From NCBI GenBank assembly GCA_964530955.1, contig CAZHCL010000001.1, positions 4,630-68,629 on the forward strand: a stretch of 64,000 nt of DNA. The letters are read 5' to 3'. The DNA is from Candidatus Woesearchaeota archaeon. GTDB taxonomy: Archaea; Nanobdellota; Nanobdellia; Pacearchaeales; GW2011-AR1. A program made the translations under genes and the position numbers. The notes beneath the pieces are model-generated. The model was given only the letters and a program-made list of their open reading frames with translations, did not search any database and was not told the DNA's origin. Positions 3,331 to 31,797 of the stretch are shown one piece after another (within the stretch, counting starts at the first letter, position 1; each line of letters opens with the position of its first letter).

Positions 3331-3342
3331 TTTCTTCTCCTT

Positions 3343-3633
3343 TCACCTTTTGAATTTTATTATTATCCCTACAAGAAGGACTATTATTGAAACTATGAGG
3401 AAAGAAAGGGTCTTGCTTAAACCAGTATATTCTATAAAGAAGAAAATTAGTGAGAACGCGAAGAATATTACTGCTGCTACAATTAGAAGCATTCCTGTAA
3501 TGTCTTTTATTATTTTTCTTATTGTTCTTTTTATTGCTAGATTAAATGATTCAAAAACATCATCTCTTGCATTTCTAAGAACTTTTCCCAATCCAACTTT
3601 AAGCAAATCTCCAAGATAATCAGTAAATCCCAT
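3343..3633 (-). CDS. small two-TM membrane protein (YqjE/holin-X-like)
   Basis: Two hydrophobic helices; adjacent to a YqjD-like gene as in yqjD-yqjE pairs. Confidence 0.4.
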   Translation of the reverse strand: MGFTDYLGDLLKVGLGKVLRNARDDVFESFNLAIKRTIRKIIKDITGMLLIVAAVIFFAFSLIFFFIEYTGLSKTLSFLIVSIIVLLVGIIIKFKR

Positions 3634-7397: not shown

Positions 7398-7670
7398 ATG
7401 GATAAAAAAAGGAGCAAATTAGAAGTCATATATGACATTCTTGATATAATAAAGAAAAATAAAAATTCGATTAAAATGACTCCTCTTCTTAGGCATTCCA
7501 ATCTTTCTTCAGAGAGATTTGGAAAATATTTTTCTGAATTGGTTGAAAAAGGATTTGTGAGGGAGATAGATGATGAAAATGGTAAGTCAGTTACACTTAC
7601 TGATAAGGGATTTACTTATCTTGAAAAGTATAGGACAATTGTTTCTTTTATTGATGAGTTTGATTTGTAA
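7398..7670 (+). CDS. small winged-helix DNA-binding protein (putative transcription regulator)
   Basis: 90 aa; KLEVIYDILDII...FSELVEKGFV...LTDKGFTYLEKY pattern typical of wHTH regulators. Confidence 0.45.
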   Translation: MDKKRSKLEVIYDILDIIKKNKNSIKMTPLLRHSNLSSERFGKYFSELVEKGFVREIDDENGKSVTLTDKGFTYLEKYRTIVSFIDEFDL

Positions 7671-7872: not shown

Positions 7873-8181
7873 ATGGCCGTTCAAAAAGCATCCTTCGCCG
7901 CAGGATGTTTCTGGGGTGTTGAATATGTTTTTTCTAAGTTTTCTGGAGTAACTAAGACTGATGTAGGTAATCAGTATCGTTCAGAGATATTTTATTATAA
8001 TGAAGAACAGAAGAAAGAAGCGGAGAACGCTAAGAAAGATTATGAGAAACTACTAGGCAAGAAAGTAGTGACTAAAATTGAAAAGGCGGGAAAATTTTAT
8101 TCTGCTGAAGACTATCATCAAAAGTATTATGAAAAGAAAGGCTCAGAGCCCTATTGTCATATTGTTCCTAGGGTAAGCTGA
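7873..8181 (+). CDS. msrA: peptide methionine sulfoxide reductase MsrA-like, abnormally short (internal about 55-aa segment absent)
   Basis: GCFWG catalytic motif, then TDVGNQYRSEIFYYNEEQ and C-terminal YHQKYY motifs. The region normally between VGYTGG and GTQYRS is missing. Confidence 0.6.
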   Translation: MAVQKASFAAGCFWGVEYVFSKFSGVTKTDVGNQYRSEIFYYNEEQKKEAENAKKDYEKLLGKKVVTKIEKAGKFYSAEDYHQKYYEKKGSEPYCHIVPRVS

Positions 8182-9441: not shown

Positions 9442-9819
9442 TTAGTTTATCGAGGATTTAATATTTAAATGTTTCCTTCCGACGAATAAAGATATAATTT
9501 CCATGTTTTTATTATTTAGGGGTACTTCAAGAAGCTTTCTGAACTTATTTTTTGGTATAATTGAAGGGGTGAAAGAAGTAACTAGCTTATATTCAAGAAA
9601 GGCATTATCCTTATCAAGCCAAATAGCTAGAAAAGGAAAGAAGACAAAAAATGAATGAATTGAAATTCTGACATCCTTTTTGAATTCGAACAGCAAGTTG
9701 GCTGTTTTCTTTGATTTAAACATCAATCCTGTTATCTTTCCGATATTTGATAGTTTTTTAACATTATTTATTTCTATAATTTTAGTTTTATATCTTATTT
9801 TGAACTTATCAATCTCCAT
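9442..9819 (-). CDS. DUF192-family protein
   Basis: GLMF...LLFEF...IWLDKDN pattern resembling the DUF192/COG1430 core. Confidence 0.45.
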   Translation of the reverse strand: MEIDKFKIRYKTKIIEINNVKKLSNIGKITGLMFKSKKTANLLFEFKKDVRISIHSFFVFFPFLAIWLDKDNAFLEYKLVTSFTPSIIPKNKFRKLLEVPLNNKNMEIISLFVGRKHLNIKSSIN

Positions 9820-10657: not shown

Positions 10658-11578
10658 TTAGGGGAATGTTCTGTAACGAGTGTTTATTAGTATATATTCT
10701 ATTAAAAATAAAAGAAGAGCAATAAGAAGAAGGTACTTCGAAACATCAATTGGAACGACTGCCTGTTTCTGATTCAATGCATTTTGGAAAGCTTGCGCAA
10801 GTTTATCTGAGTTTTCTGCGGTAGAATAATTACCTCCAGTGTTATAGGCGAGATACTGCAGAGACTGCTCATCAACTTGAGACAAACCATATGAAGTCTG
10901 GCCTCCCTGTCTTGTACCTATCGATATTGTGTTAATAATCGCATGATATCTATTCGCGTAATTAGCTGCGTATTCAAGAGAACCAGTGTTTATCTGCCCA
11001 TCACTTAAAATTATCAATGCTTTTGTGTCTTCATTAACTAATAAGTTTACTCCAGTCACGACTGGCTCATATATATCTGTTCCTCCAACGTCAGAAATGT
11101 TGATATTTATTATTGCTGCCCTAAGTAGGCCCTTATCATCAGTAACAGTCTGTTCTATTACCGAGCTGCCCGCGAAAGATAATATCCCTACCTTAGTACC
11201 GAATGGCAAAGAATCAAGAAAAGACAGAGCAGTGTTTTTCGCTGCGTCTAATCTAGTTGGATAAAAATCATTTGCCCCCATGCTTTGAGAGGAATCTATT
11301 GCTATCACAAAAGAAAATTTGCTGACTGTTTTTGTAATTACCATTGTTGTACCGGCCAGAGCAAGTACGGAAAGAACAACTATTATGCACGTTAGAGCTA
11401 ATATGGTGACGTTTTTTGAATATAAATCTAGGCCTGTAATTCTTGAGAGCGCATTGAAATTAGCAAATTTTAAAGTCCTTTTTTTTGTAATCTTTATTGA
11501 AATAAAATGTATTAGAATTATTATTGGAATAAAAAGAAGCAAGGCTAGATAAGCTGGTTGGGCGAATATTAAGTTCAT
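10658..11578 (-). CDS. von Willebrand factor A domain membrane protein (BatA-like)
   Basis: N-terminal TMs; VWA MIDAS-type motif VIAIDSSQSM; GILSFAGSS. Confidence 0.75.
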   Translation of the reverse strand: MNLIFAQPAYLALLLFIPIIILIHFISIKITKKRTLKFANFNALSRITGLDLYSKNVTILALTCIIVVLSVLALAGTTMVITKTVSKFSFVIAIDSSQSMGANDFYPTRLDAAKNTALSFLDSLPFGTKVGILSFAGSSVIEQTVTDDKGLLRAAIININISDVGGTDIYEPVVTGVNLLVNEDTKALIILSDGQINTGSLEYAANYANRYHAIINTISIGTRQGGQTSYGLSQVDEQSLQYLAYNTGGNYSTAENSDKLAQAFQNALNQKQAVVPIDVSKYLLLIALLLFLIEYILINTRYRTFP

Positions 11579-12489
11579 ATTGCAATCACCTTTTTTACTC
11601 TTCTTTTCATGAATTCAATTACATCAAATATGAATGGACTTGCTGTTGAAAGAGAAAGGTAGTCAATATTTGCTTCTTTGAATGATTGTTTTACAAATTC
11701 TTCCTGTTTTAATGCATGTTTTTCATAATTTTTTCTTGCGAGTCTTGGTTCAATCAGTAGCTGTTGGTGTGTAGACGGATCTTCAACTATATATTCTCCT
11801 CCAACGTCTGGCAAAGAAATATCTATGGGATCCTTTATCATGAATGCTATTGTCTCGTATTTATTTCCAAGTAATTCTAAGGAATGTTTTGTTCTTTTGT
11901 CAAAATTAATAAAGTCTGACACAAGCACAATTGCAGAAACGCCTTTCATTGGACTTTCAAGCATTAAATCAATCGCAGAGGAGATATTTGAACCACTCTT
12001 ATAATTATCTGGATTAGACAAAACGCTAACAAAGAGTTCGAACTGTTTTTTTCCTCTTTTTGGAGTTTCGATTCTGCTTACTTTGTCGTTAAATAAAATC
12101 AGGCCTGCGCGGTCATTTTCCTTTATAACCATATCAGCCATCGAAATCACAAGTTCTGCAGCGTATTCGCATTTTAACTTTTCTGTTGAACCAAAAAGCA
12201 TGTTCTCTCCCGTGTCAACAACAAAAAGTATCTTCTTTTCTTCCTCTTCCCTATATTTTCTTACCATTATTTTCTGCGACCTTCCGCTCGCTTTCCAGTC
12301 TACTGCAGAAAAATCATCCTCTCCATTATTAAAAGGTCTGAAACCGTCAAAATCAAAACTTTTTCCTCTGAAAAATATTTTATACGTCTTATTTCTTGTT
12401 TCAAATGACTTAAGAAAATGTCTGAGGGCAGATATGCTCTCACCTATTGACAGATTTAGCCTTCTTTCTTCTTTCATATTATTTGGCAA
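11575..12489 (-). CDS. DUF58 protein (MoxR-associated)
   Basis: VDWKASGRS...KYREEEE...LFVVDTGENM, typical DUF58 core. Confidence 0.75.
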   Translation of the reverse strand: MPNNMKEERRLNLSIGESISALRHFLKSFETRNKTYKIFFRGKSFDFDGFRPFNNGEDDFSAVDWKASGRSQKIMVRKYREEEEKKILFVVDTGENMLFGSTEKLKCEYAAELVISMADMVIKENDRAGLILFNDKVSRIETPKRGKKQFELFVSVLSNPDNYKSGSNISSAIDLMLESPMKGVSAIVLVSDFINFDKRTKHSLELLGNKYETIAFMIKDPIDISLPDVGGEYIVEDPSTHQQLLIEPRLARKNYEKHALKQEEFVKQSFKEANIDYLSLSTASPFIFDVIEFMKRRVKKVIAI

Positions 12490-13488
12490 TTATTTTGCAT
12501 GCACTTCCTTGAATATTTCTTCTATAATTATCTCAGGGGTTATTTTGTCAGCCTGCGCCTTATATGCTAAAATTATTCTATGACGGAGAATATCTTTTGC
12601 TACTGCCTTGACATCTGAGGGTATAACAAAATTTCTTCCATTGACTAGTGCCTCGGCTTTCGCTCCGATATATAATGCAATGCTTCCTCTGGGGGAGCAA
12701 CCCAAGTCTATATACTCTCCATATTTGAATTTCTTATCACGAGTTTTCTTTATTATTGCAAGAATATAATCCTTAATTTTTTCATCAAGATAAATTTCAT
12801 GCGTAAGTTGTTGCATAAGTTTTATTTTTTCTGCTGTGACTATTGAATTAATTTTGTAATCTTCAAATTTTTTAAAAGTTGCATTTTCTTCCATAACGTG
12901 CAGTTCACTTTTGTCATCAGGATATTCCATAAGTATTTTGAACAAAAACCTATCTATTTGCGCTTCTGGAAGGGCGTAGACTCCTTCAGTCTCAATTGGA
13001 TTCTGGTTCGCCATGACAAAGAACGGAGTTGGCAAGGGGTAGGTTGTAGAACCTATTGTAACTTGACCTTCCTGCATCGCTTCAATAAGAGCAGACTGTG
13101 TTTTAGGAGGACTTCTGTTTATTTCATCAGCTATTATAAAATTAGAAAAGATAGGACCTTTTATTACTTCAAATCCTTTCTTGGGATCATAGGCAGTAAT
13201 TCCTACTATGTCGCTAGGCAAAAGGTCTGCTGTAAACTGAATTCTTTTGAAACTGCATCCGCTTACTTCTGCTAGGGTTTTGATAAGAAGGGTCTTGGCT
13301 ATTCCTGGAACTCCTTCAAGCAATATGTGTCCATTGCAAAGTAATGCTCTCAAAAGAGAATCGACTATTTTTTCTTGACCAAAAAAGACTTTCGATATCT
13401 CTTTCCTCATTAGAGCAAGTGCTTTTGAAGCATCCTTTACCTTACCCATGTTGGCTTTTTTTACCACTTCTTTTTTATAAATTTCCAT
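12490..13488 (-). CDS. MoxR-family AAA+ ATPase
   Basis: LLEGVPGIAKT Walker A, ADEINRSPPKTQSALIEAMQE; about 330 aa. Confidence 0.9.
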   Translation of the reverse strand: MEIYKKEVVKKANMGKVKDASKALALMRKEISKVFFGQEKIVDSLLRALLCNGHILLEGVPGIAKTLLIKTLAEVSGCSFKRIQFTADLLPSDIVGITAYDPKKGFEVIKGPIFSNFIIADEINRSPPKTQSALIEAMQEGQVTIGSTTYPLPTPFFVMANQNPIETEGVYALPEAQIDRFLFKILMEYPDDKSELHVMEENATFKKFEDYKINSIVTAEKIKLMQQLTHEIYLDEKIKDYILAIIKKTRDKKFKYGEYIDLGCSPRGSIALYIGAKAEALVNGRNFVIPSDVKAVAKDILRHRIILAYKAQADKITPEIIIEEIFKEVHAK

Positions 13489-13560: not shown

Positions 13561-16500
13561 TCACTCATAGCCCATCAAAGCTCTTCTGAGCTTAATTCTT
13601 TTGTACATGTAATACCCTATGCCCCCCACCAATGCAAGCCCGCTCGCCCAAATAGTATAATAGAATATATTGAAATTACTGTTTACCCCTAGTACTTTCT
13701 TAGAATTTATTTGTTCTATCGACTTTTTGCAAGCGTTTATTGCTTCATTGACTTTTGAATCTGCAAGCGAAAGATTTCCCTGAGCTAGGGCAATATCTGC
13801 TTGATTTACTATTTCTTTTACTTCGGCGCACTCAGGATTATCAACCAAAAGTTGGTCTGCAAAAAGAATATTTCTCTCTATACTTGCTCCTTCTTTAACG
13901 GTGAGGTATATTTTACCCCAGTCAGAGAATTTTGGATTTTCGACTGTTGCATTTATATTTATTTCGTATAATCCTTCAAGCAAAGTATCCACCTTAATTG
14001 TTAATGTGACATTTTTCATTTGACCGACTCCCAAAGAATCTATGAAATTTGTATCATATTGAGCAGTCACGCCAGGTATTGAACTTCCGTTAAGAAAAAC
14101 TGAACTGGATAAATTTATATGATTAAGTATTTCTCCGCCGTTATTGTAAACTGTGATGGGCACGACTATAAGATCTTTTTTATCGGCTGAAATTGGCCCT
14201 GGTAGGATTAATTTTAATTCTATAGGAGTTGTAACTGTTTGTGTGCCTCCTCCACCTCCTCCACCTCCGCCCCCGCTACTTGGAGAAGGAGTATTACTTG
14301 TTACTGAGATACTAACAGAAAAATTATTGCTTGAAATATTATTTATTACTGCATTAGATGAGTTATACTCGAGTGCTGTAATGCTGAAATTAGCTGATGC
14401 ATCAGAACTTGAACTGAAAGTTATTGAAGGAGCAGAATTATGTGTCCAGTTCACTGATGAAATTGAAATTCCTGTTCCTGAAAGATTAGTTACTAAAAAA
14501 ACAACTGTTTGATTTACGCAAAGGTCATTTACATCTAGGTCTGAGAAATAACTTGATAAGGAAAGTATTACTGGACTCCCTCCTGATTGGGTGGGAATTG
14601 GAGACGAAAGGGAGATGGGATAGTTAGTATGATTGATTATTGTTGACCAACTTGAAGAGTTACTAAACTCTGGATTTGAAACATTTAGGGTTAGATTTAC
14701 TGGGCCAGAGCAGGTTGTTTCATCTGTAAAATTAGTTGTAAAATTCCAGAAGAAAGAACTTCCGTTTCCATAGCTGGCTGTTTGATTTCTTAAGATATTA
14801 TTAAGATAAAATGAATAAATAAGTGGGTCTCCGGCAGTATGATTTGCAGTAAAATTAAGATAATATGTTTTATTTTCTGCAAGATTAAATGAAGTTGAAA
14901 ATGAAGGGGAGACTATATCTGGGTAATCATATATTCTCAAAGTAAAATTACTTGTTGAGTTCAGTCCGCTGCTGTCTTCAACCTGAACGCTGTAATTCCA
15001 AATTCCTGATTTTAAAAAAGAAGAATTTGTAATTATCCCTGTTTTGTTTGTTATATTTAGGAAATTTCCTAATGATGTGAGATTATATAGTGTATAAGTC
15101 AGGTTGCCCGTACTTTCATTTATGTCTTCAACATCTGTAGAATTAACGTCATAACTGAACTGCTGAACAAATGAAATATTCATGTCAGGTATTGGACTAA
15201 TGTTTGGACTGTGTTGGACAGAATTAATAATTATTGTAAAATTAAAAGCATCAGTATTATTTGTTAAGTCAGATACATTAGCTAGAACATTATATGTTCC
15301 AACATCACTCTTCTTAGATGTAAAATGAATTCCAAAAGAAGATTTATTACCTGAAATTATTGGAGAATCAGGAGAAAATAAATTTAGGTTGGGGCCACTT
15401 AAAATTGTAATATTTAGTTTTATTGATTCGTTATAAAAAGAGGGTTGCTTTATTAGAAGGTCATTATCTTCGGCGTTTATGTAAAAAAAGGTATAATTGT
15501 CTTCATATGCATGAATAGTTGAATCTTGGCTTATACTATAGTTAGATGACTGAGCATCTGAAGAATTTAGTCTCATTATGTAAACTTGGTCAGGTATATT
15601 ATCTATAGTAAGATTGACTGAAATTATATCGGATGATCCAGCATTGTCAGTTACATTCCATACTAATGCGTGAAATCCGACATCGCTATCATCTGGAGTG
15701 AAATTAACTATACCTGTTGTTGAATTTATGCTAAATGAAGGTAAAAAGGTATTACAATTTTGGTCACATGTGAAAGTAAAAGTCATATTGGTAATTCCAT
15801 CAGGGTCAGTAAAGTTTTTGCTAAGATTGAGATAAAAATTATTTCCCTCAGTTAGATTAAATGAAGTTAGCATGGTGGTATTCCATAGAGGGGGAGAGTT
15901 TTGGCTAACGATTATTGAAAATGTTTTTGAGTCGAAAGAAAAGTTATTTGCATCAGTTACATTAATCGTTGCGTTATAGGTACCTCCTGCAAGAGTCGAA
16001 TTAGGATATATCGCTATGGTAGCTTGTGTAATATTTGTATTATTTATTACCCTTTGAGATATTACTCTTACCCAATCAAGATTTGATCTGAAAGTAATAC
16101 TTTCATTGTAAACATATTTACTTATTATCAAAAGGTCATTATCACTTGCATTAACAAGCAAGGTTACATTTCCAGTGGTGTAAGCAGTTAAATTATCTAT
16201 TGTCTGAAGAGATACAGGGTCATTTGTATTAGCAATTGAAAGATTAATTACTGTTGAGTTTATTCCTGTTGGAACTCCAGTGTCTGTAATGCTTATATTA
16301 ATTGACCAGTTTCCTACGGCAGTATTATCTGGTGTGAAATTAACTATAAATGAAGCATTAAATCCTGTCGAAATATTTACCGGCAAGGTTATATGATTAG
16401 TATTGGTTCCGTTAAATAAAAACCAGCTCTGGTTTGCACTTATTGTGAGATTATTGACCTCGTCTAAATCAGTAACGTTAATTCTGCAATTAAAAATAGA

Positions 16501-17730
16501 CTTTTCTATGCCCGTGTTCTCATTATTACATGCATAGGTAAAATATGGTGGCTGATTTGCGTTATTCATTGAAAAGGTGACTATTTTACTTGTTGTTGCA
16601 TTAAAAGGCAATATCGTATTTCCAGAATCGGAAATAGTGAAATTAACTGTGTAATTTCCCACGTCATTTCTTGATGGAATGAAAGAAATATTGATTGTGC
16701 CAGTTGTATTGTCAAATGCATATTGAGTTGAATTAAAAAGATCACATTGAGTGCTATTTCTATTGCTCCACTGTGCTGTGGAACAATTAAGAAAAGTAAT
16801 GTTCAATTTGTAGGGAAAATTATTTTCCTCATCACTAGAAAAGATAGTATAGTTAAAAACAGAAGAACCAGTCACATTAAATGAAATATTATTCAAATTT
16901 GTGAACAAGGGAGGATCATTTATTGCGGTTGTGCTGATTGGGAGAGTTGCAAAATCTGTTCCTCCGCTGGAATCAGTTACTATGAATTGAAGCTGTTCAC
17001 TCGGAGTACTTTGATTCATTCTTGTTTTGTTGACAGTCAAAAATCCAGAGCTTGTAAAAGTGTAATTGTTATAGCTATCAGTTGGTAAAGTAGTATTTGC
17101 GCTTACAATTGAAAATGTGAGAGAATTTTTATCATTGAAATCATCATCAACAGTATTCGCAGATATATTAAATAAGCAAATACTGTCCTCATTACAAGAT
17201 AAAGTTGTCATAGTATTTCCGAATACTTTATTTATTTGGGGAGGACTATTCTGAATTGTGAAATTGTCTGATAAAGTAATATTCCCATAATTACTAGTGC
17301 AATTAATTCTAAAGCTTGAAGGTCCTTTGTAATTAAAACTTGAATTGGACTGCCAAAGAGAAATTCCTGAATTATATTCCATATATGCTGCTGGGCCGTA
17401 TGTCCCTGTGTTGTTGAATTGTATCGTACAATTTGCTCCTGTTCCGAGTCCAAGGGTGCTGTTTGTTGAATTTGTATAGTTTGCATAAAAATAGAAATTC
17501 CAATTTGATGCTGTCTTACTATTAGTCGAGCCGAATGTAAGGTTCGCACTTATCGCAGGCGTCTGCGTTAATGTTCCGTTAGTCCAAACAGAAAGTGTTG
17601 CATTTCCATTTGAAGATGAATTAATAGCTCTTATCGTGCCAATAAGCAAAATTATTGCTATAGAGATTAAAATAACTGTTAGAAAAGAGAAAAATCTTGC
17701 TCTGCCTGCTTTTTTTATATTCGATACCAT
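13561..17730 (-). CDS. giant (1389 aa) surface glycoprotein: N-terminal signal/TM, many N-x-S/T sequons, Gly10 linker, C-terminal TM anchor
   Basis: Dozens of NxT/NxS sequons; SGGGGGGGGGGT encoded by (CCN)n at about 14246-14278; C-terminal IWASGLALVGGIGYYMYKRIKLRR. Confidence 0.7.
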   Translation of the reverse strand: MVSNIKKAGRARFFSFLTVILISIAIILLIGTIRAINSSSNGNATLSVWTNGTLTQTPAISANLTFGSTNSKTASNWNFYFYANYTNSTNSTLGLGTGANCTIQFNNTGTYGPAAYMEYNSGISLWQSNSSFNYKGPSSFRINCTSNYGNITLSDNFTIQNSPPQINKVFGNTMTTLSCNEDSICLFNISANTVDDDFNDKNSLTFSIVSANTTLPTDSYNNYTFTSSGFLTVNKTRMNQSTPSEQLQFIVTDSSGGTDFATLPISTTAINDPPLFTNLNNISFNVTGSSVFNYTIFSSDEENNFPYKLNITFLNCSTAQWSNRNSTQCDLFNSTQYAFDNTTGTINISFIPSRNDVGNYTVNFTISDSGNTILPFNATTSKIVTFSMNNANQPPYFTYACNNENTGIEKSIFNCRINVTDLDEVNNLTISANQSWFLFNGTNTNHITLPVNISTGFNASFIVNFTPDNTAVGNWSINISITDTGVPTGINSTVINLSIANTNDPVSLQTIDNLTAYTTGNVTLLVNASDNDLLIISKYVYNESITFRSNLDWVRVISQRVINNTNITQATIAIYPNSTLAGGTYNATINVTDANNFSFDSKTFSIIVSQNSPPLWNTTMLTSFNLTEGNNFYLNLSKNFTDPDGITNMTFTFTCDQNCNTFLPSFSINSTTGIVNFTPDDSDVGFHALVWNVTDNAGSSDIISVNLTIDNIPDQVYIMRLNSSDAQSSNYSISQDSTIHAYEDNYTFFYINAEDNDLLIKQPSFYNESIKLNITILSGPNLNLFSPDSPIISGNKSSFGIHFTSKKSDVGTYNVLANVSDLTNNTDAFNFTIIINSVQHSPNISPIPDMNISFVQQFSYDVNSTDVEDINESTGNLTYTLYNLTSLGNFLNITNKTGIITNSSFLKSGIWNYSVQVEDSSGLNSTSNFTLRIYDYPDIVSPSFSTSFNLAENKTYYLNFTANHTAGDPLIYSFYLNNILRNQTASYGNGSSFFWNFTTNFTDETTCSGPVNLTLNVSNPEFSNSSSWSTIINHTNYPISLSSPIPTQSGGSPVILSLSSYFSDLDVNDLCVNQTVVFLVTNLSGTGISISSVNWTHNSAPSITFSSSSDASANFSITALEYNSSNAVINNISSNNFSVSISVTSNTPSPSSGGGGGGGGGGTQTVTTPIELKLILPGPISADKKDLIVVPITVYNNGGEILNHINLSSSVFLNGSSIPGVTAQYDTNFIDSLGVGQMKNVTLTIKVDTLLEGLYEININATVENPKFSDWGKIYLTVKEGASIERNILFADQLLVDNPECAEVKEIVNQADIALAQGNLSLADSKVNEAINACKKSIEQINSKKVLGVNSNFNIFYYTIWASGLALVGGIGYYMYKRIKLRRALMGYE
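14246..14278 (-). repeat. (GGN)11 coding microsatellite (poly-Gly linker)
   Basis: cctcctccacctcctccacctccgcccccgc on the + strand. Confidence 0.8.
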
Positions 17731-19694
17731 TTAAACTCCTCATTTGATCTCTTCTCTCTGAGAGAACGTATAAGCTTGATTATAGCGATAATAATTAATA
17801 TCAATATAATCAGAAGAATTAGTAAAAAGACATATATAAGACCTTGGTTTTTGCTTGCGTTACTTACGGGGCACTGCTTTGGGCAGGGACCTCCGCAATC
17901 GATTCCTTTCTCTCCTTGATTTTGGATTTTATCTGAGCAGGTTGCACAGGCGGAGCAGGGACCTCCGCAATCTGTTAATACTTCGCAACTTCCATCATGA
18001 CAGTTTTTTATTCCGTCTGAACAAGTTGGTTTTAAGGTGAATTCGCACATCTGGCTTTGGGGAAGAAAACTTTGGGTGAAGTTACAATAATGTAAATCAA
18101 GACAGTTTCTTGTTTGAAATCCACAATTATCGCTTACTAAACCTACTGATACACATGAACTCTTAAAACCTACGTAGTCATTGTTTTTGACAGTACTCTC
18201 TTTCAAAGAAGTGTCTAAATTTTGGCAGATATTCCAATTTCCGCAAACTTCTAAGGGAGCACAATTAATATTTGCTCCCCCGCCTCCAGCACCAGCACTT
18301 CCCCCGCCTACCGATGAAGGACAGATAACTTGAGTTACATTAATTGTCCAGATTAAACTTTTATTGAGAAGCCCATCTGTAATTTCAGATTTTATCGCGT
18401 GTATCCCACTTACTCCGCAACCTAAAATTTCTGTTATTGAAGAAAATGAATTGTTCAATGTCTTTGATAAACTCTTATTATCTAGGTACCAGTAAGTATC
18501 TGGAACATTTCCGTCGGGGTCTGCAGAAGTAGTATTAAAGTAAAGAATGTCGTTTCCCGAAATATTTAAATCAAAGAATGTCGGATACCAAGAAGTAAAG
18601 TAGGGAGCTCTATTTTCTTTTGTTACGGTGAGCGAAAAGTTCTTGCATGTCGTCTGAGCCAGACCTGTCTGCCCGCACAAACTGATATTAGGACTGATGC
18701 TAGACAAGGATTTATCAGTTGCGCACACGCTAAGATTATAATTGCCTAAAACGCTTTCATTGGCTGTAAAATTGATTACTCCCTTGCTGCTCATGCTGAA
18801 GAAAGGAGAGCCATTAAGAAAAGTTAAATTAAGAGTAAGGTTACCTACCATCGAATTTCCATCTTCAACATCTGTTACACTAATCTCTTTATAGAAATTT
18901 GAATTATCTCCATGGCTCCAGACCGTTTGAACACCTATATCAGCCATAACTGGAGGATTATTTATTTCTATTACAGTTATATTAGTGTTTACGGTATCTG
19001 CAAATTGTCCATCTGTGACTGAAATTGCTTCGGAATATTTTCCGATATTTGATTTTCCTAACAATCCTGAGAGTATAAATGATTTTGGATTTGTTTGAGC
19101 GATAAATGAATCAGGACTAAGAAAGAAAATACTTTGAGGGGAAATTGTTAAGCTTAGATTGTCTTCGTCAGGATTATAGACGTTGAATGGATAAACAAGA
19201 ACTCTTCTTTCACAGACATATATATCTGGGTCTATTCCTTGAATTAAAGGAGCTGAATTTGGGACATCAATATAGAATATTACGCTGCTGCTTCCAATCG
19301 TTCCGCTCGTGCTATTCGCAAAAACTGTCAGTTTATTACTCCAGCGGACAGCATTTAGGGTAGAGTTGGGGATAAAAGTTATATTGCTTGCGGCAACTGT
19401 GCCATGACGTAAATCTTCCAATGTGTACCACCAACTGTCTATATCTAAATTTGTTGTGGAAACATTAAGATCTAAAGTATAATTGCTGCCTATATTGAAG
19501 TTATAAGTTACGTTCAAAGGACTCCAAATAGTAACCACTACTTCTGGAGTTTTTATGAAAAGAGTTATACTCCCGATATTCGCAAATCCAGTAATGGGAA
19601 TTTTCATGGTTTGTGATAAAATGAAAAAAAACGATGTTCCAGCGATGAATATTAAGACTATGCTAATAGCTAAAAATAACTCCCTTTTTTGCAT
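17715..19694 (-). CDS. surface protein (659 aa) with Cys-rich C-terminal module and C-terminal TM anchor
   Basis: Signal/TM at the N-terminus; Gly-rich linker GGGSAGAGGGGANI; about 25 Cys in the last 150 aa before the TM (CGGPCSACATC...CGGPCPKQCP). Confidence 0.6.
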   Translation of the reverse strand: MQKRELFLAISIVLIFIAGTSFFFILSQTMKIPITGFANIGSITLFIKTPEVVVTIWSPLNVTYNFNIGSNYTLDLNVSTTNLDIDSWWYTLEDLRHGTVAASNITFIPNSTLNAVRWSNKLTVFANSTSGTIGSSSVIFYIDVPNSAPLIQGIDPDIYVCERRVLVYPFNVYNPDEDNLSLTISPQSIFFLSPDSFIAQTNPKSFILSGLLGKSNIGKYSEAISVTDGQFADTVNTNITVIEINNPPVMADIGVQTVWSHGDNSNFYKEISVTDVEDGNSMVGNLTLNLTFLNGSPFFSMSSKGVINFTANESVLGNYNLSVCATDKSLSSISPNISLCGQTGLAQTTCKNFSLTVTKENRAPYFTSWYPTFFDLNISGNDILYFNTTSADPDGNVPDTYWYLDNKSLSKTLNNSFSSITEILGCGVSGIHAIKSEITDGLLNKSLIWTINVTQVICPSSVGGGSAGAGGGGANINCAPLEVCGNWNICQNLDTSLKESTVKNNDYVGFKSSCVSVGLVSDNCGFQTRNCLDLHYCNFTQSFLPQSQMCEFTLKPTCSDGIKNCHDGSCEVLTDCGGPCSACATCSDKIQNQGEKGIDCGGPCPKQCPVSNASKNQGLIYVFLLILLIILILIIIAIIKLIRSLREKRSNEEFKWYRI

Positions 19695-19731
19695 TTAAAG
19701 CAAAACAAAACTCAATATAAAAATATTGCTT

Positions 19732-20175
19732 TTATCCAATTTTCCTCTGAATGCTAATTATTAGTTCTCCAGTGTAATTACCTAGAGGATAACTGGTTGG
19801 TATTGCTAGAGTTAAACCTACATTAACTGACTGGTTTTTTACTATCGAATAATCTGGTTGGAAAATCAGAATACCTTTCAAATTATCACTAGGATAAACT
19901 GTTGCCCTGATTGGAAAAGAATATTTGTTATTTATAACTAAAAACCTCTTAAGTGTCTCCCCAGGTAAAACATTCCCAAAAGTAAGAGCAGTCCTATTCA
20001 AATCAAGACCAATCTTATCTGTTACTGCGAAGCTGACTTTGACTTTCTCTAAACTTAAAGGAATAGAAGATAAAAAATAAAAGACTAAATAGGCAATTAA
20101 AATTAGCCAAATAATTATCAATCCTATAATTATCCTATTATTTTCCTTTTGACTTTTTATTTTCTTTCCTACCAA
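19732..20175 (-). CDS. membrane-anchored small protein
   Basis: N-terminal TM; co-oriented with the surface-protein cluster. Confidence 0.4.
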   Translation of the reverse strand: MVGKKIKSQKENNRIIIGLIIIWLILIAYLVFYFLSSIPLSLEKVKVSFAVTDKIGLDLNRTALTFGNVLPGETLKRFLVINNKYSFPIRATVYPSDNLKGILIFQPDYSIVKNQSVNVGLTLAIPTSYPLGNYTGELIISIQRKIG

Positions 20176-21286
20176 TTTTTCTCCTTACTCTTATTAAGTA
20201 TGCTATTAATGTTATTACTGCTATGAGAGCAATTGCAATTGCTGCCACAAGCCCTATTAGTAAATAATTATATTCTCTTTTGAAATTAATATTTACATAT
20301 TTTTCAGTTGTTTTGTTGGCATAATCTATCTCTATTCTCGCTCTGAAATTATCTTCTTGAATGCTAGTAGTGTCAAAATATCCTGTAAGAGTTGATTGTT
20401 CAAATCCCTTCAAATCTACTGATGGGGTCTTAAAGGTTATAGGATAACCTAGAATAGAAACTGTTGCATATACATTTTCAATTGGATCATTCCACAGACT
20501 TTCTATCTTTACGTCAAATCTATTTATCTTGTTTTTAGTAAGATCATTTGAGTAATTTACTATTGAAATTGCTAGCTCGCCTATTCTGAAAGGTATCTCG
20601 GATTTCAACTGACTTTCCCCACCATAACTAAGAAGAGCCAAAGCAGTATATTTTCCAGGATTATAGGAAGAAGTGTTCAATGTAAATTCTTGTGATATTG
20701 AATCCTGTGAGACTATATTGTCAAAAGATGCGGGTATTTTTTCAATTGATGCTTTATTCTGGTCGTAAATATAAATGAAACCATCTACCGATATAATTTC
20801 TTTTCCGAGATTATGAATAATCATACTAAACTTAACTGGTTCGCCCCTGTTTACATTAGTTGATGAAAAATCGATGGTAGCATATTTTCCTGGGAAAGGA
20901 ACATCTACTTTTATGTCTCCTCTTATCTTTCCGACTAGAGAAACTCCAGACGCTCCATTTCCTTCTTGGCTTGCCGATATATATATGTCATGTCTTCCAG
21001 GTATTTCTATGCTCCGAGGAAGCTGGAGAAGAGCATTCACTCCGCCCGCATCTGCGCCGAGGGAAGTTGTGCTTAGAGTTACATACTTTGCCAGATCTCC
21101 TTCTGCGCTTATTTTAAGTTGATAATCATTATCCTGTAGAAAGTCAAAATGAAAAACTTGTTTTAGTCCGGGCTGAAAATCAACCTGATAAGAAGCAGGA
21201 CTAACCCCTATAAATGCATCTGCTCTTGCCAAAATAATTAATAGGAAAAATGCAAAAATAAACGCACCTTTTTTAATCAAGTTCAT
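20138..21286 (-). CDS. secreted protein with C-terminal TM anchor
   Basis: Signal peptide; C-terminal TM plus RVRRKIGRKENKKSKGK tail. Confidence 0.5.
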   Translation of the reverse strand: MNLIKKGAFIFAFFLLIILARADAFIGVSPASYQVDFQPGLKQVFHFDFLQDNDYQLKISAEGDLAKYVTLSTTSLGADAGGVNALLQLPRSIEIPGRHDIYISASQEGNGASGVSLVGKIRGDIKVDVPFPGKYATIDFSSTNVNRGEPVKFSMIIHNLGKEIISVDGFIYIYDQNKASIEKIPASFDNIVSQDSISQEFTLNTSSYNPGKYTALALLSYGGESQLKSEIPFRIGELAISIVNYSNDLTKNKINRFDVKIESLWNDPIENVYATVSILGYPITFKTPSVDLKGFEQSTLTGYFDTTSIQEDNFRARIEIDYANKTTEKYVNINFKREYNYLLIGLVAAIAIALIAVITLIAYLIRVRRKIGRKENKKSKGK

Positions 21287-21335
21287 AAACTACCTCATTC
21301 TTCATTATTTTTATACGTTTCTAATCATTAAACAA

Positions 21336-21971
21336 TTAAAGCCCTGTTCCTGTTGCAGTTATTGTATCTGAAAGATTTCCTGTGACTGAGTCAGAAGGAA
21401 CACCTAGTTTTATATCTATTCTTATCTGGTTCTTTGTGCTTACAAAACTGAAGTTCATGCAAATATTTGTTCCGGGAGAAGTTGAATTAAGGTCATACCA
21501 TTGTCCGAGATTGAATACGGTAGTGTTCTGACAACTTGAAGCCTTCGAGTTTGAAACGTTGTACTGGTAGGAGGGACCTCCGCCGGCTGTTCCTCCTATG
21601 AATTGACTAGAATTCTTCCCAGATGATAAAGTAAGATTCACGTCATCATTTCCTATATTTTGAAGAATGAATCCTTGGGTGATGTTATTCCAACTACCAT
21701 TAATTACTGCTGTTGCGAGAGGGGTCGCAGTGCTTAGGACTGCTATTGTTGCTCCGGGATTAACCGCTCCGCTTCCCCAGTTAATATTATTTGTTGTAAA
21801 ATTAATTGCGACCTGAGAAGTAACCGTAATATTGACTGTTCCAGTACTTGTTGCATATCCAGTTAATATTTGTTCCTTGAAATGCGCTAAAGAATAATAA
21901 GTTGCACTAAATGCTATTCCTGAAATTAAGAATGCTACTAAAGCCAAAACTAAAACGATTTTTTCATTCAT
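21336..21971 (-). CDS. secreted/N-anchored Thr/Ser/Asn-rich protein
   Basis: N-terminal hydrophobic segment; NxT/S sequons. Confidence 0.45.
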   Translation of the reverse strand: MNEKIVLVLALVAFLISGIAFSATYYSLAHFKEQILTGYATSTGTVNITVTSQVAINFTTNNINWGSGAVNPGATIAVLSTATPLATAVINGSWNNITQGFILQNIGNDDVNLTLSSGKNSSQFIGGTAGGGPSYQYNVSNSKASSCQNTTVFNLGQWYDLNSTSPGTNICMNFSFVSTKNQIRIDIKLGVPSDSVTGNLSDTITATGTGL

Positions 21972-22183
21972 GGGGTTAGGTTAACCTCTTCTTTGGGTTG
22001 GTAAGGTTGAACACCTATATAAACTCCTCCGGCAGGAAGCCCCGAGCCCGATTCATTTTTGTAAGAGGCAGAACTATTTGTGATTTTTAAGTGCGACCAA
22101 GAAAGACTTATTATAATTGCTCCGACAGCTAACATTATTGATAAAATTAAAAGAACTGCAGTTATCCTCTTTGTCGAATTCAT
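21968..22183 (-). CDS. small N-anchored protein
   Basis: MNSTKRITAVLLILSIMLAVGAIII hydrophobic N-terminus. Confidence 0.35.
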   Translation of the reverse strand: MNSTKRITAVLLILSIMLAVGAIIISLSWSHLKITNSSASYKNESGSGLPAGGVYIGVQPYQPKEEVNLTP

Positions 22184-22337: not shown

Positions 22338-22412
22338 GGCCTCGTAGCTCAGCCCGGTTAGAGTACTGGACTTTTAATCCAGGTGTCGCGGGTTCAAATC
22401 CCGTCGGGGCCA
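22338..22412 (+). tRNA. tRNA-Lys (anticodon UUU)
   Basis: Manual cloverleaf: acceptor GGCCTCG/CGGGGCC, D-stem GCTC/GAGT, anticodon stem CTGGA/TCCAG with loop CTTTTAA, T-arm GCGGG-TTCAAAT-CCCGT, discriminator A. Confidence 0.9.
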
Positions 22413-22454
22413 CTTTCTCTTTTAGATTATCCTCGATAGAAAAGATTTATAAAT

Positions 22455-22483
22455 ATAGGATATGAGTATAGGATATGAGTATA
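22455..22483 (+). repeat. 13-bp direct tandem repeat (ataggatatgagt x2.2) upstream of the pilin gene
   Basis: Exact duplication at 22455-22467 and 22468-22480; followed by a strong GGAGG ribosome-binding site. Confidence 0.8.
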
Positions 22484-22518
22484 AGCATAATTGCTTAAAC
22501 AACTAAAAGGAGGTTAAA

Positions 22519-22962
22519 ATGTATAATAAAAAGGCCATAAGTGATGTTATATCTACAGTTCTTATTATTCTGCTTGTCGTAGCTGCAATTGCAATAATTG
22601 GTGCTATCGTACTAAACACAGTCAATAAGGGAGCTACAGGAGTAAACAGCGCAGTATCGTGCCAGTCTTTGGATATCAAACCTACGAGATGCTCACTAGC
22701 AGGAGTTGCTTCAACATTTGCTGTTGCTCAAAGAGGAGCAAGCGGTTCTGATATACAAGTAAATTCAGTAACATTCTTATTCACTAAGAGTGATGGAACA
22801 ACTACTCAATTGAGTACTAGTTCATCAATTAATGCGGTAGGGAGCACAGTTACTGGAAACCAGTCTGGAGCTTTCACAAGCGTAGCTACTTTTGAGAATG
22901 TAACATTGTCAGATGGAAGTAATACTGTCTGTCCGGCATCTACACCAGTAAGCTGCTCTTAA
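22519..22962 (+). CDS. archaeal type IV pilin-like protein (class III signal peptide)
   Basis: MYNKKAISDVISTVLIILLVVAAIAIIGA: K-K-A-I-S followed by a hydrophobic helix, the classic prepilin-peptidase substrate; 147 aa. Confidence 0.65.
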   Translation: MYNKKAISDVISTVLIILLVVAAIAIIGAIVLNTVNKGATGVNSAVSCQSLDIKPTRCSLAGVASTFAVAQRGASGSDIQVNSVTFLFTKSDGTTTQLSTSSSINAVGSTVTGNQSGAFTSVATFENVTLSDGSNTVCPASTPVSCS

Positions 22963-23011
22963 TTAAATTTATTTTTTATTTTAATTCTATTTATTTTTAT
23001 AGAATCTTTTT

Positions 23012-23449
23012 TTATCTTAATTTTTTTGCAAGCCAATTAGTTAGTAAGAACTCTCTTCTGTAGAAAATATCTCTTTGTATCAAGTATATCAGGTCAAGGA
23101 AAGAATGGAAAACCATTCCAATAAAAACATAAATGAAAGGATCCCAGATTAATCCCAAGAGAAAAGTCAGAAGCAAAAATTCTATAGTGTGGAAAATATG
23201 AAAGTCTCCTCTTTTTCTTATTCCTTTTTCTCTTTCAATTAGTGCTATCTTTCCCTGCTGAATATGGTAGTCGAATGCCTTCTTTAAACTTAAAGAATGA
23301 TTCTTCATTACTGGTTCTAGGTAATGGTCAAAATCGATAAGAAAAGAAGACAAGAAAATTAGAATTGTTCCGTATATGGGAATTTTAAATGCCAGAAAAA
23401 CAATTAGGGAAAAAATAGCTCCTAGAATAATATGTGTTTTTGGAAGCAT
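23012..23449 (-). CDS. membrane protein, YdjM/DUF457-like (putative metal-dependent hydrolase)
   Basis: Hydrophobic helices with a DFDHY motif. Confidence 0.4.
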   Translation of the reverse strand: MLPKTHIILGAIFSLIVFLAFKIPIYGTILIFLSSFLIDFDHYLEPVMKNHSLSLKKAFDYHIQQGKIALIEREKGIRKRGDFHIFHTIEFLLLTFLLGLIWDPFIYVFIGMVFHSFLDLIYLIQRDIFYRREFLLTNWLAKKLR

Positions 23450-23451
23450 TG

Positions 23452-24978
23452 CTAATGATTCTCAAGTTTTCTTATCATTTCTGCGAATGCAGGTCTAGAG
23501 ATGAATACTCCTGCAGTTATCCCTATTATGGTAGTAACTGCAAATCCTTTGAGAAGACCTGCGCCTGCCCAATAGAGAGGAAGAAGAGAAGCAACTGCTG
23601 TCGCGTAGGATGCGAGGATTATGAAGATGGCTCTCTTAATTCTTTCACTTAAACTTGATTGTGAACCTCTTTTTGCTTCATCCAAGATTACTATCTGACT
23701 ATCAACTCCCGTGCCTATTGTTGCGAGTATTCCTGCTATAGAAGGCAAATCAAGATTCCATTTAATAAGAGCAGCTACTCCGAGAATTATAATTAGTTCA
23801 GAGAAAGAAGTGAAAAGCAATGCAAGAGAAGCCTTGACTTTTCTATACCTAATAAAGATTATTATGCTGACCGCAAGAAGTGATGCTATGCCTGCTAAAA
23901 TTAAAAGCCAAGTGAAACTGTTTCCCAGATTAGGCGAAATGGTGTCGAGCTTTACTATATTTAACTTATATGGCAAACTACCAGTTATAAGAATAGTCTG
24001 AAGTCTCTTCATGTTATCTAAAGCGTTGGACATCGCTTCATCCTGGGTGTTTCCTGTTCCCGGTCCTTGGATTGATATTTGGGTTGCTGCCTGTCCCTTC
24101 AAATCGGCGCCTATTGAAAGAGAATCAACTAATTTGCTGTCTACGTAAAGATCTAACTTCTGAGATAAATATTGAGGTGCGGAAGGGTCAATTGAAACGT
24201 TGCTCGTTATATCTGCCTGCCTTTGCGCGGCCTGTGCTGTTAAATATACTGTAAATCTAAACTCACAAAGGTATCCTCCTTGTTGTGCGGGATCACATGA
24301 AACTACTCCTGAGCAAGAGGCATCATTTCTGCATACATCGCTTATATCCTTTTTTCCTCCTTCAAATATAGTTGAATTTCCTATTTTTGCTTCAAACTTT
24401 CCCTGCTGAGATATTAAATCCTGTAAATCATTAGGAGTTGCTCCTGCAACTTCGACAAGCATATACTTATTTCCTGATAAATCACTGACACCACTTATCT
24501 GAACATCCGACAGACCGAAAACATTAAACCTATTTGTACTAACCTGAATTAAATCATCCAGTTGTTTGTCAGTAATAACTGTATCTGGTTGAACTAGTGC
24601 TCTTGCTCCTCCTCTTAAATCTAATCCTGTTTGAATTCTAGACTTAGGTATATCTTCAATCGTGATATTCGGAACCTGACTAGATAACAGAACGTAATCA
24701 TTCTTGTCCGTCTTTATATCTATGCGCTTTGATTCATTACTACCCGTTGTAAAAATAGAGCTTATGATATTAGAATAATCCTGAGCATTATTTATTGTCT
24801 GACTATTTATAGAACTTATAATTTCTCCTGAACGCATACCTTGATTAAAAGCAGATGAATTAGGCTCGACTGACTTTACAACAACTCCTTTTCCAAAGAA
24901 GTTAGGACCTATGGCTAATATGGATAATATCAGCACGATAATCAAAAGCCAGATTTTCCATCCCCAATTAAATTTCAT
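23452..24978 (-). CDS. secD: protein-export membrane protein SecD
   Basis: GLDLRGGARALVQ motif, C-terminal 6-TM SecD/F domain. Start chosen at MKFNWGW (24978), forming an ATGA overlap with the secF stop. Confidence 0.85.
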   Translation of the reverse strand: MKFNWGWKIWLLIIVLILSILAIGPNFFGKGVVVKSVEPNSSAFNQGMRSGEIISSINSQTINNAQDYSNIISSIFTTGSNESKRIDIKTDKNDYVLLSSQVPNITIEDIPKSRIQTGLDLRGGARALVQPDTVITDKQLDDLIQVSTNRFNVFGLSDVQISGVSDLSGNKYMLVEVAGATPNDLQDLISQQGKFEAKIGNSTIFEGGKKDISDVCRNDASCSGVVSCDPAQQGGYLCEFRFTVYLTAQAAQRQADITSNVSIDPSAPQYLSQKLDLYVDSKLVDSLSIGADLKGQAATQISIQGPGTGNTQDEAMSNALDNMKRLQTILITGSLPYKLNIVKLDTISPNLGNSFTWLLILAGIASLLAVSIIIFIRYRKVKASLALLFTSFSELIIILGVAALIKWNLDLPSIAGILATIGTGVDSQIVILDEAKRGSQSSLSERIKRAIFIILASYATAVASLLPLYWAGAGLLKGFAVTTIIGITAGVFISRPAFAEMIRKLENH

Positions 24979-26153
24979 GTTATGTGCTTGACCTCCATGT
25001 ACCACTTTAGCATTGAAGCATTTGATATCCATGTGTTTAGGATATCAAAGAATAAACCTATAAGAATAATTCCAAATATCTGTCTTAGAGTATCTGAAAA
25101 ACCATAAATTACTGTAAATGAAACTGCTACTGCTGCTATGGCAGTAAGAGTCATTGTAATTCCTGTTTTAAATGCCCCAAAAATTCTGTGATTTACATTG
25201 CCATCTTTACTTTTAAGTAAACGGGTAGTTAACAAAATGTCTGTATCAACAGAATATCCTATAAGCATAAGGAATGCAACTATTCCTGCTGTTGACAACT
25301 GCATCTTGAGAATATCAGCCACAACAACAGTCATAATTATGTCTGCAAATGCGGAGAGAATTACTGCAAAGCTAGGTATTGAATAAAATACATATATGAA
25401 AATCAATGCAGCTGCAATTGGTATCAGAATTATTGGATTTGGATAAATGAAGAAGAGTAGCACTGATACTACAAAAATTGAAAATGAAATTAGGTAATCA
25501 TTTCTGACTTTATTTTTAGAAGTAAGACAAATTATTAAACCGCAAAACATCGCAAGCAGAGAAAGCATATTTATTGCAGGTATAGCTGGGAGCAATATGC
25601 TTAGACCTAAAAAAGAAAGTATAGTTGCGATTCCTTTCATTTTTCTTGACTCTGCGAAAATAATAAAGACAACCCAACCCATAAGCAAAAAAGCTGCGAA
25701 AACGGCGTTTTTCAGCTGTGAATAAAATCCGCTTGAAAGATTGCTCCCTGAAAACTCAACAGATGAATTATCGCTCGTCAGATTATAGCCAATAACCTTT
25801 TCTATTGCTGCCTTTGCAGTATTTGCATCTGCCTTCGTTTCTACAAAGAAACCTACCTGCTTCTGAGTTCTGAAATCTGATATGGACCTTACGATGACAT
25901 CAGGGAATTGAGTTTTGAGTTCTGTTTGAAGAGAAGCTATATTTACGTGAGAGTCAGATATGGTTATAGTTGTTCCTCCTGTGAGAGAAACGTCTTTGTA
26001 AATAATGTCTTGATTAGTACTATAAAAATTAAACAAATAGACTAAAGAGAATAGTATTAAGATTGCAGGAATTAAAAGAAGCCACTTGTAATGTCTATCG
26101 TACCATCCTCTTACATGTGTGGATTGTTCAGTCTGATGTTGCTGGTTTTCCAT
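24975..26153 (-). CDS. secF: protein-export membrane protein SecF
   Basis: SLTGGTTITI (SecF tGGt motif) and C-terminal TM bundle; archaeal secF-secD order. Confidence 0.85.
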   Translation of the reverse strand: MENQQHQTEQSTHVRGWYDRHYKWLLLIPAILILFSLVYLFNFYSTNQDIIYKDVSLTGGTTITISDSHVNIASLQTELKTQFPDVIVRSISDFRTQKQVGFFVETKADANTAKAAIEKVIGYNLTSDNSSVEFSGSNLSSGFYSQLKNAVFAAFLLMGWVVFIIFAESRKMKGIATILSFLGLSILLPAIPAINMLSLLAMFCGLIICLTSKNKVRNDYLISFSIFVVSVLLFFIYPNPIILIPIAAALIFIYVFYSIPSFAVILSAFADIIMTVVVADILKMQLSTAGIVAFLMLIGYSVDTDILLTTRLLKSKDGNVNHRIFGAFKTGITMTLTAIAAVAVSFTVIYGFSDTLRQIFGIILIGLFFDILNTWISNASMLKWYMEVKHIT

Positions 26154-31458: not shown

Positions 31459-31797
31459 ATGGGAAAGAAATTGTATGTCGGAAATTTACCTTTTTCTGTA
31501 ACATCAGAGAAATTGAAAGAAATCTTTTCTGCTTATGGCGAAGTTGAAGCGGAAGTTATTTCATTCAAAGACACAGGCAAATCAAAGGGATTTGGTTTTG
31601 TAACTGTAGCTGATGACATTCAAGCTGAGAAAGCTAAGCAAGAAATGAACGGAAAGGAACTCGAAGGAAGGAAAGTGCTTGTTAATGAAGCAGCGCCTTT
31701 CGATCCGAATAAGCCAAGAAGACCTAGAAGAGATTTTGGGGATAGAAGATTTGGCGGCGGCGGACGAGGAAGATTCGACAGAAGAGACGACGATTAA
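31459..31797 (+). CDS. RRM-domain RNA-binding protein with RGG/Arg-Asp-rich tail
   Basis: RNP-2 LYVGNL and RNP-1 KGFGFVTV motifs; C-terminal RRPRRDFGDRRFGGGGRGRFDRRDDD. Confidence 0.8.
   Translation: MGKKLYVGNLPFSVTSEKLKEIFSAYGEVEAEVISFKDTGKSKGFGFVTVADDIQAEKAKQEMNGKELEGRKVLVNEAAPFDPNKPRRPRRDFGDRRFGGGGRGRFDRRDDD

Follow-up and report, generated by a model that had tools for sequence, protein, structure and literature searches.

What do two genes encode that share an almost identical N-terminus and lie far apart on one archaeal contig? The question is raised by a 64-kb window (the whole stretch of DNA analysed here) of contig CAZHCL010000001.1, from a Candidatus Woesearchaeota archaeon. The window has a GC content of ~34% and can be recognised as archaeal because it carries genes for MCM, aIF2-gamma, aIF5B, aRF1, deoxyhypusine synthase, Kae1 and SecD/SecF. 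Open reading frame (ORF) A, at 22519-22962 on the forward strand, encodes a small stand-alone protein of 147 amino acids (aa); ORF B, at 56899-58458 on the reverse strand and 33.9 kb away, encodes a protein of 519 aa that ends in a LamG domain. An earlier interpretation of the same DNA, referred to here as the sequence-only reading, had described the two ORFs as paralogues about 34 kb apart, and both the ORF check and a BLASTP comparison (E=9e-13) bear this out. The interpretation that we favour, and consider probable, is that both ORFs encode type IV pilin-like subunits, A as a stand-alone structural protein and B as a modular pilin that also carries a lectin domain.

How far does the relationship between A and B extend? 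In a single BLASTP comparison the two proteins are 48% identical across 95 aa, and 37 of their first 58 residues are the same. The sequence-only reading confined the likeness to about 50 N-terminal residues. The similarity itself holds but its limit does not: in an alignment of 14 sequences, consisting of the ORFs and database homologues, the full length of A aligns to residues 1-165 of B. Thus, A and B are paralogues over the whole pilin module. Full-length homologues of A numbered 13, and four cysteines are invariant in the alignment (C48, C58, C138 and C146 in A; C48, C58, C151 and C159 in B). The N-terminal motif had been read correctly in both proteins, as KKA/ISDVISTVL in A and KKG/ISSVISTVL in B (here and below, a slash marks the predicted cleavage site). 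Of the pentapeptide SVSCQ, which had been described as conserved, the cysteine is indeed kept across the family but the remaining letters are not; A has AVSCQ where B has SVSCQ.

Has this N-terminal identity been preserved by function, or does it stem from a recent duplication or gene conversion? One locus lends the second explanation some support. In L036, from the Woesearchaeote-like metagenome-assembled genome (MAG) GCA_041643215.1, a fusion of a pilin module to LamG (P0023, L036:9221-10402) lies 3.6 kb from the gene for a 160-aa pilin (L036:13988-14470), and the two pilin modules are 55% identical, compared with at most 43% across genomes. The fact that the two members of this pair are more alike than either is to any member from another genome indicates that some within-genome homogenisation or re-derivation occurs in the family. 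The window pair looks different. Over the first 174 nucleotides (nt), identity between A and B is only 62%, and the 37 shared residues use the same codon in 18 cases and different codons in 19, so neither a recent duplication nor a recent gene conversion is indicated; on the grounds of synonymous divergence, recent conversion is rejected for this pair. Moreover, A is far closer to its orthologues P0002 and P0004 (59-63% identity) than to B (42%). A recent origin of the likeness is therefore very unlikely, and the N-terminal resemblance appears, from these sequence comparisons, to be old and selectively maintained.

What does the shared N-terminus indicate? Both proteins start with a basic leader of five to six residues, followed by A or G, the sequence I-S-x-V-I-S-T-V-L and an uninterrupted hydrophobic stretch of ~27 residues. 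In A the leader reads MYNKKA/ISDVISTVLIILLVVAAIAIIGAIVL, with predicted cleavage after A6, and in B it reads MMSKKG/ISSVISTVLVILLVVVAIAIIGVVVL, with predicted cleavage after G6. Both thus have the archaeal class III signal, [KRDE][GA] at positions -2/-1 ahead of a hydrophobic stretch. When every start codon in all six frames of the window was examined by a FlaFind-like scan, A and B were the sole real genes to pass, and the one false positive lay inside SecF. The NCBIfam model TIGR02537, for the N-terminal domain of archaellins and type IV pilins (cutoff 20), scores B at 23.6 bits and A at 16.4 bits. No match to the bacterial prepilin N-terminal family (cf. IPR012902) was found for A or B at E<=1 in Pfam or NCBIfam. 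The motif that they carry is of the archaeal class III type. An archaellin identity was rejected, as neither protein matches Arch_flagellin (PF01917) at E<=1 in Pfam; their head domain, a sandwich with four cysteines, is also unlike that of archaellins.

Structure prediction yields a similar picture for the two pilin modules. The AlphaFold2 model of A consists of a helix at residues 4-50 followed by a seven-stranded beta-sandwich, with a predicted local distance difference test (pLDDT) score of 83. The model of B has a helix at 8-51 and a beta-sandwich, the fold as a whole spanning residues 8-162, and its pLDDT is mostly at least 90 over residues 11-160, with dips to 81 and 85. Hence both predicted models combine a long N-terminal helix with a beta-rich head.

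A and B belong to a large family. A profile built from the 14-sequence alignment was searched against 1.84 billion cluster representatives, with clusters defined at 50% identity, and found 2,943 of them at E<=1e-3, of which 704 reach E<=1e-10; nearly all are matched end to end. The top 155 share the signature M-x-N-K-[KR]-[GA]/[LVI]-S-D-V-V-[TS]-T-V-L-I-I-L. The sequence-only reading had proposed a prepilin-peptidase motif followed by a hydrophobic helix, and the family supports this proposal: the motif pattern is present in 126 of the 155 members scanned, and all of the 126 sequences that match this anchoring pattern have S at +2. Exactly four cysteines are found in the module of 132 out of 148 members. 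Most members are small, of ~150 aa, and lack a binding domain, while ~20% of the top members exceed 200 aa; roughly one member in five bears binding domains at its C-terminus. Among Pfam families only Pilin_N recurs: it is matched by 27 of 117 short members, with a best E of 5.8e-8, and by 7 of the 32 long members. When family profiles were compared with sequences in the PDB, all matches were weak and all were to archaeal type IV filament subunits, namely 8fk7_A (E=0.014), Iho670 and, with E=0.11, 9myg_A, which is annotated as 'Archaeal Type IV pilin N-terminal domain-containing protein'. Among species-representative genomes, relatives of A were found at 23 loci, every one of them in a DPANN MAG titled Candidatus Woesearchaeota, Pacearchaeota or Nanoarchaeota. 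Elsewhere the family forms tandem arrays with two or three members each (L013 and L017-L020).

ORF B extends the pilin module with three further segments, all encoded on the reverse strand. The module itself (aa 1-165, 57964-58458), with its class III signal MMSKKG/ISSV and cysteines 48, 58, 151 and 159, is complete. It is followed by a low-complexity linker rich in N, G and P (aa ~166-197, 57868-57963; AlphaFold2 pLDDT <50), and then by a tentative fibronectin type III (FN3)-like, or Ig-like, spacer (aa ~198-290, 57589-57867). This spacer matches Pfam fn3 with E=2.8e-4 and 21.5 bits, under the gathering threshold (GA) of 25, and is supported by a local alignment with P0024, a protein of FN3 repeats (E=3.9e-11). 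The C-terminal segment (aa ~300-519, 56902-57561) is a domain of LamG/concanavalin A-like lectin fold, predicted to bind a ligand. The fusion to such a domain had been suggested by the sequence-only reading and is well supported, with a Laminin_G_3 (PF13385) match at aa 355-512 (E=3.8e-25; 89.2 bits vs GA 27.6) and a beta-jelly-roll fold modelled at a pLDDT of mostly 80-95. The top Foldseek match in the PDB is 5hon_A, the arabinan-binding domain 4 of AbnA (TM-score 0.76, E=2e-12), and further matches are to clostridial neurotoxin Hc, the trans-sialidase lectin domain and CBM40. By this likeness to carbohydrate-binding domains, the LamG domain of B may be a carbohydrate-binding module. With a complete pilin module, a linker and a domain not otherwise part of a pilus, B has the architecture of a modular pilin.

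Which genes accompany the relatives of A and B? Relatives were found in pilus operons of five Woesearchaeota MAGs. In loci L021, L022 and L025, a relative is located among other pilin-like genes, directly upstream of genes for a T2SSE ATPase (PF00437, 5e-34) and two T2SSF platform proteins; a HerA-like ATPase is also encoded in the operon. The relative at L021:10001-10501 matches the family profile with an hhalign probability of 97.9%. Locus L029 has pilin-like genes and the ATPase gene with no platform-gene match, and L030 ends within the ATPase gene. No arl/fla accessory genes were identified in the pilus operons of these relatives. In MAGs that have the pilus operon, further family members are scattered over other contigs (L023, L026 and L027). 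Pilin genes far from their machinery are thus normal in this lineage, and pilin genes distant from the machinery have been noted in other archaea as well (PMC4858521; preprint 10.64898/2026.04.22.720090).

The interpretation of A and B as pilins has to be weighed against several results that speak against it. A falls short of the TIGR02537 cutoff (16.4 vs 20 bits), and neither protein reaches the Pfam threshold of Pilin_N (PF07790; A 17.6 and B 19.1 bits, under GA 25.2). When the PDB was searched by Foldseek with the model of A, generic Ig-like sandwiches such as ApaG and FN3 were retrieved (best E=2e-3) and no solved archaeal pilin; the structural case consequently rests on the overall topology. 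The FN3 assignment in B is sub-threshold and poorly modelled, and remains tentative because AlphaFold2 confidence is low there. T2SSE, T2SSF and Peptidase_A24 were not found by Pfam in 46 ORFs of the 64-kb window, and no prepilin peptidase of the A24-like type was recognised among the multi-transmembrane (multi-TM) ORFs of any locus examined, which comprise rhomboid-like, presenilin-like (GxGD), SecF and PAP2 proteins only.

The absence of a pilus ATPase or platform gene from the window had already been remarked on from the sequence, and it was confirmed by both Pfam and tblastn. The 46 ORFs include both multi-TM ORFs that lack annotation and every ORF of at least 176 aa. Some 20 ORFs of 90-160 aa lay outside the Pfam scan, and none of them is multi-TM by the criterion used: 3209-3619 has two segments that qualify as transmembrane and 9442-9819 has one, while 7398-7670, 7873-8181 and 31459-31797 were covered by 6-frame tblastn only. 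Woesearchaeal ATPase or platform proteins used as tblastn queries had no match in the window. Beyond its left end, in locus L033, retroelement and AAA_5 genes were found and no pilus genes.

Could A and B be something other than pilins, namely ordinary surface proteins that depend on Sec, are secreted or held in the membrane by a type II anchor, and share a signal anchor? The sub-threshold Pfam scores, the generic Ig-like folds returned by the structural search and the lack of pilus machinery in the window would all fit such proteins, yet the N-terminus does not. The charged residues and the G or A directly precede the hydrophobic stretch, and do not trail it, while the ~27-residue hydrophobic part of a 45-residue helix exceeds a Sec h-region. 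The N-terminal 30 residues are also conserved across thousands of proteins, well beyond the needs of a signal anchor. Further points against this explanation are the passing TIGR02537 score of B, the fact that no Pfam family but Pilin_N recurs among members, and the linkage of relatives to T2SSE/T2SSF operons. There is little chance, in our estimation, that this explanation is correct.

How might two pilin-like subunits of such different architecture work together? Their precursors would be inserted into the membrane by the N-terminal hydrophobic helix, and a class III signal (prepilin) peptidase would then remove the 6-residue leaders (MYNKKA/I in A and MMSKKG/I in B). The subunits would next be extruded as a filament, with the alpha1 helices packed in the core and the disulfide-stabilised beta-sandwich heads forming the surface; this would be the work of a T2SSE-family ATPase and a pair of TadB/C-like platform proteins whose genes would lie in another part of the genome. 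Purifying selection would have kept alpha1 of A and B nearly identical, since each has to be compatible with one shared peptidase, platform and filament core. A is likely to be the major, or at least an abundant, subunit: the protein is small, and its gene is monocistronic, keeps its position across genomes and is preceded by a strong Shine-Dalgarno sequence. B would be co-assembled at low copy, most plausibly at the tip, where its LamG domain could bind carbohydrates and so attach the cell to surfaces or hosts.

A filament is not the only structure that proteins with class III signals can form. A and B might be surface proteins without long pili, organised as a short pseudopilus or a bindosome-like raft or simply anchored by alpha1, with the LamG domain held at the cell surface for the capture of substrates or host glycans. 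Display at the cell surface for substrate capture has been proposed for Sulfolobus sugar-binding proteins. Archaeal class III signal proteins with binding domains are also widespread (preprint 10.64898/2026.04.22.720090), and neither A nor B adjoins machinery genes. The weak matches of A and the L021 relative to the bindosome assembly proteins BasA and BasC (0.038 and 5.3e-5) point the same way, but these scores are far under the cutoffs, and what is aligned is mainly the N-terminal helix that the proteins share. Furthermore, the operons of relatives, with several pilin-like genes, an ATPase gene and split platform genes, are typical of pilus systems of the System 1 / 4A type; both platform genes are present in L021, L022 and L025. 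The prevalence of members of ~150 aa without a binding domain is likewise as expected of filament subunits. Display without a filament is therefore unlikely, though it deserves more weight than a mere signal anchor, and assembly of A and B into a pilus is preferred.

Do other genomes combine a small pilin with a pilin-LamG protein? The pairing recurs in L036 and L009. In the L036 pair, the pilin modules are closest to each other within their own genome, and B and P0023 align in the pilin part only, their LamG domains being not detectably related. These two features suggest, as far as the sequences can tell, that pilin-LamG fusions are independent and genome-matched. LamG is also not the sole added domain: among the 32 long family members examined, 8 carry LamG_3, and in others the added part is Big_7, fn3, Ig, a NosD beta-helix or Flg_new repeats. 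It is tempting, if tentative, to regard the four-Cys pilin module as a lineage-specific display scaffold of Woesearchaeales/Pacearchaeales onto which interchangeable binding domains (LamG, Ig/Big, FN3 and beta-helix) may have been grafted repeatedly and independently; this is a possibility that we rate as somewhat doubtful. If it were true, host-dependent DPANN archaea would have an evolvable set of adhesins at the pilus tip with which to recognise hosts or surfaces, an archaeal counterpart of bacterial modular pilins. We know of no survey of such a counterpart in the form of a grafted display scaffold.

The gene for A appears to be transcribed on its own. Its likely expression signals (22440-22518, forward strand), read from the sequence, comprise an A/T-rich TATA-like box, aaagatttataaata, two tandem copies of the 13-nt repeat TAGGATATGAGTA between this box and the start codon, and a Shine-Dalgarno sequence, GGAGGT, 5 nt ahead of the ATG. 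An oligo-T tract after the stop codon (22963-23010) is read as a terminator. Downstream, on the opposite strand at 23012-26153, are genes for a 145-aa YdjM-like membrane protein (PF04307, sub-threshold), SecD and SecF. These genes are convergent with A, and so are not co-transcribed with it. The arrangement, with the pilin gene facing YdjM-like, SecD and SecF genes in that order, is kept in about four Woesearchaeota MAG lineages (L006/L007/L014, L008/L009, L010 and L031). A functional link between A and YdjM-like/SecD/SecF was considered and rejected, and the arrangement is taken as conserved gene order only. The syntenic orthologues of A are 40-57% identical, compared with 70-73% for SecD. 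By this comparison, A seems to behave as a core but fast-evolving surface protein. At ~15100-15778, L008/L009 also has a GyrB intein with a LAGLIDADG endonuclease, according to Pfam.

On the other side of A, a tRNA-Lys(UUU) gene (22338-22413, forward strand) is located 105 bp upstream, between A and a divergent cluster of genes for surface proteins. This cluster consists of six consecutive genes (13561-22183, reverse strand) encoding proteins of 71, 211, 382, 147, 659 and 1389 aa. All six start with a signal or anchor at the N-terminus, and TM anchors at the C-terminus, Ig/cadherin-like repeats and a Cys-rich region occur in several; none of the six has a significant family match. A functional link between A and the cluster was also rejected. 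The cluster is not conserved beside the orthologues of A, which instead have a Glu/Gln-tRNA synthetase gene upstream. Directly downstream of the cluster is a Bat-like operon (10658-13488, reverse strand) encoding a MoxR AAA+ ATPase, a DUF58 protein and VWA/BatA.

A gene at 55927-56829 (reverse strand), 70 bp downstream of ORF B, encodes a 300-aa protein with a signal peptide and a C-terminal TM anchor, and may be co-transcribed with B. The window contains a paralogue of this protein at 4941-5939, with a CARDB match, beside a MacB/FtsX ABC transporter. A homologue with 48% identity is found in L029, ~6 kb downstream of the ATPase gene of the pilus locus. Among relatives of A and B, multi-TM ORFs that look rhomboid-like by eye, from their N-terminal sequence, are close to family pilin genes in L011 (10639-11259) and L015 (7620-8282) and ~7 kb away in L028 (364-933). 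Their position may be coincidental.

The left edge of the window carries a diversity-generating retroelement. Its reverse transcriptase ORF lies at 253-936 on the forward strand (RVT_1, 2.9e-13). In L033, from the same population, a template repeat is located upstream of the reverse transcriptase gene (features at L033:3912-3998 and 5760-7343), and two neighbouring genes each have at the 3' end a variable repeat of 87 nt that matches it. The mismatches between template and variable repeats fall on template adenines in 17 of 18 and 21 of 22 cases. The reverse transcriptase ORF has 272 aa in L033 and 227 aa in the window and in L034, hence there is strain variation.

Why would pilins of this kind matter? 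Woesearchaeota and other DPANN archaea, most of them uncultivated, have small, reduced genomes and are believed to rely on hosts, and their mode of attachment is poorly understood. A small, positionally conserved pilin and modular pilins that bear lectin domains are concrete and testable candidates for an attachment apparatus. The family of about 2,900 clusters is mostly labelled 'hypothetical'. As its members usually fall under Pfam thresholds, a dedicated profile would improve the annotation of these genomes.

How do A and B compare with known systems? The adhesion pilins PilA1-6 of Haloferax volcanii have a conserved hydrophobic domain in common (cf. PMC4371748, PMC4858521). The wider group of archaeal Pilin_N/DUF1628 pilins (PF07790; TIGR02537), the nearest homologous family, resembles the A/B family in its short basic leader, [KR][GA]/ motif, S at +2, long alpha1 and beta-rich head. 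Pilin_N pilins also occur as several paralogues per genome with near-identical N-termini, and their genes often stand alone, apart from the ATPase/platform locus. The A/B family differs in having D or S in place of the usual P at +3 and a lineage-specific head with four invariant cysteines, and so far it has been seen only in MAGs of Woesearchaeota, Pacearchaeota and Nanoarchaeota. Unlike Pilin_N pilins, most of its members, including A and B, score below the Pfam gathering threshold.

Archaeal type IV filament loci of System 1 (Epd-like) and 4A, which have two platform genes, have been reported in methanogens and DPANN archaea (preprint 10.64898/2026.04.22.720090). The operons in L021, L022 and L025 are similar, each with one T2SSE gene, two T2SSF genes and several pilin-like genes, but the window has no such operon. 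Class III signals are combined with binding domains in the bindosome and in a galactose-binding-domain protein of the M. maripaludis Epd locus (preprint 10.64898/2026.04.22.720090). Like bindosome proteins, B combines a class III signal with a large domain behind it that binds, or in B is predicted to bind, a ligand. However, bindosome proteins are solute-binding proteins of ABC transporters, whereas B has a complete pilin head, FN3 and LamG, has no transporter adjacent to it and scores far under the BasA/BasC cutoffs.

The closest parallel to B is bacterial. PilC of Streptococcus sanguinis consists of a pilin, an Ig-like and a concanavalin A-like lectin module; its binding of glycans has been shown experimentally and its position at the pilus tip has been modelled (PMC9934059). 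The order of modules in B is the same (pilin, Ig-like/FN3 spacer, ConA/LamG-like lectin fold), its size is similar (52.8 kDa for PilC, 519 aa for B), and both proteins coexist with small pilins, which in S. sanguinis are the major ones. By analogy with PilC, B may be an adhesin at the pilus tip, as the sequence-only reading had proposed. Unlike B, PilC has a bacterial class III signal and N-methylation motif, and neither A nor B matched a family with the bacterial prepilin N-terminal cleavage/methylation motif (IPR012902) at E<=1. B is placed outside the bacterial modular-pilin family because its signal is of the archaeal type. It would thus be an analogue and not a homologue of PilC, with only the generic lectin fold possibly alike. 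The concept of modular pilins is set out in PMC8179133, whose survey covered only bacteria. A and B are a new example of a design that is already known in its parts: type IV pilins of archaea, pilin genes that stand alone, and modular pilins with lectin domains.

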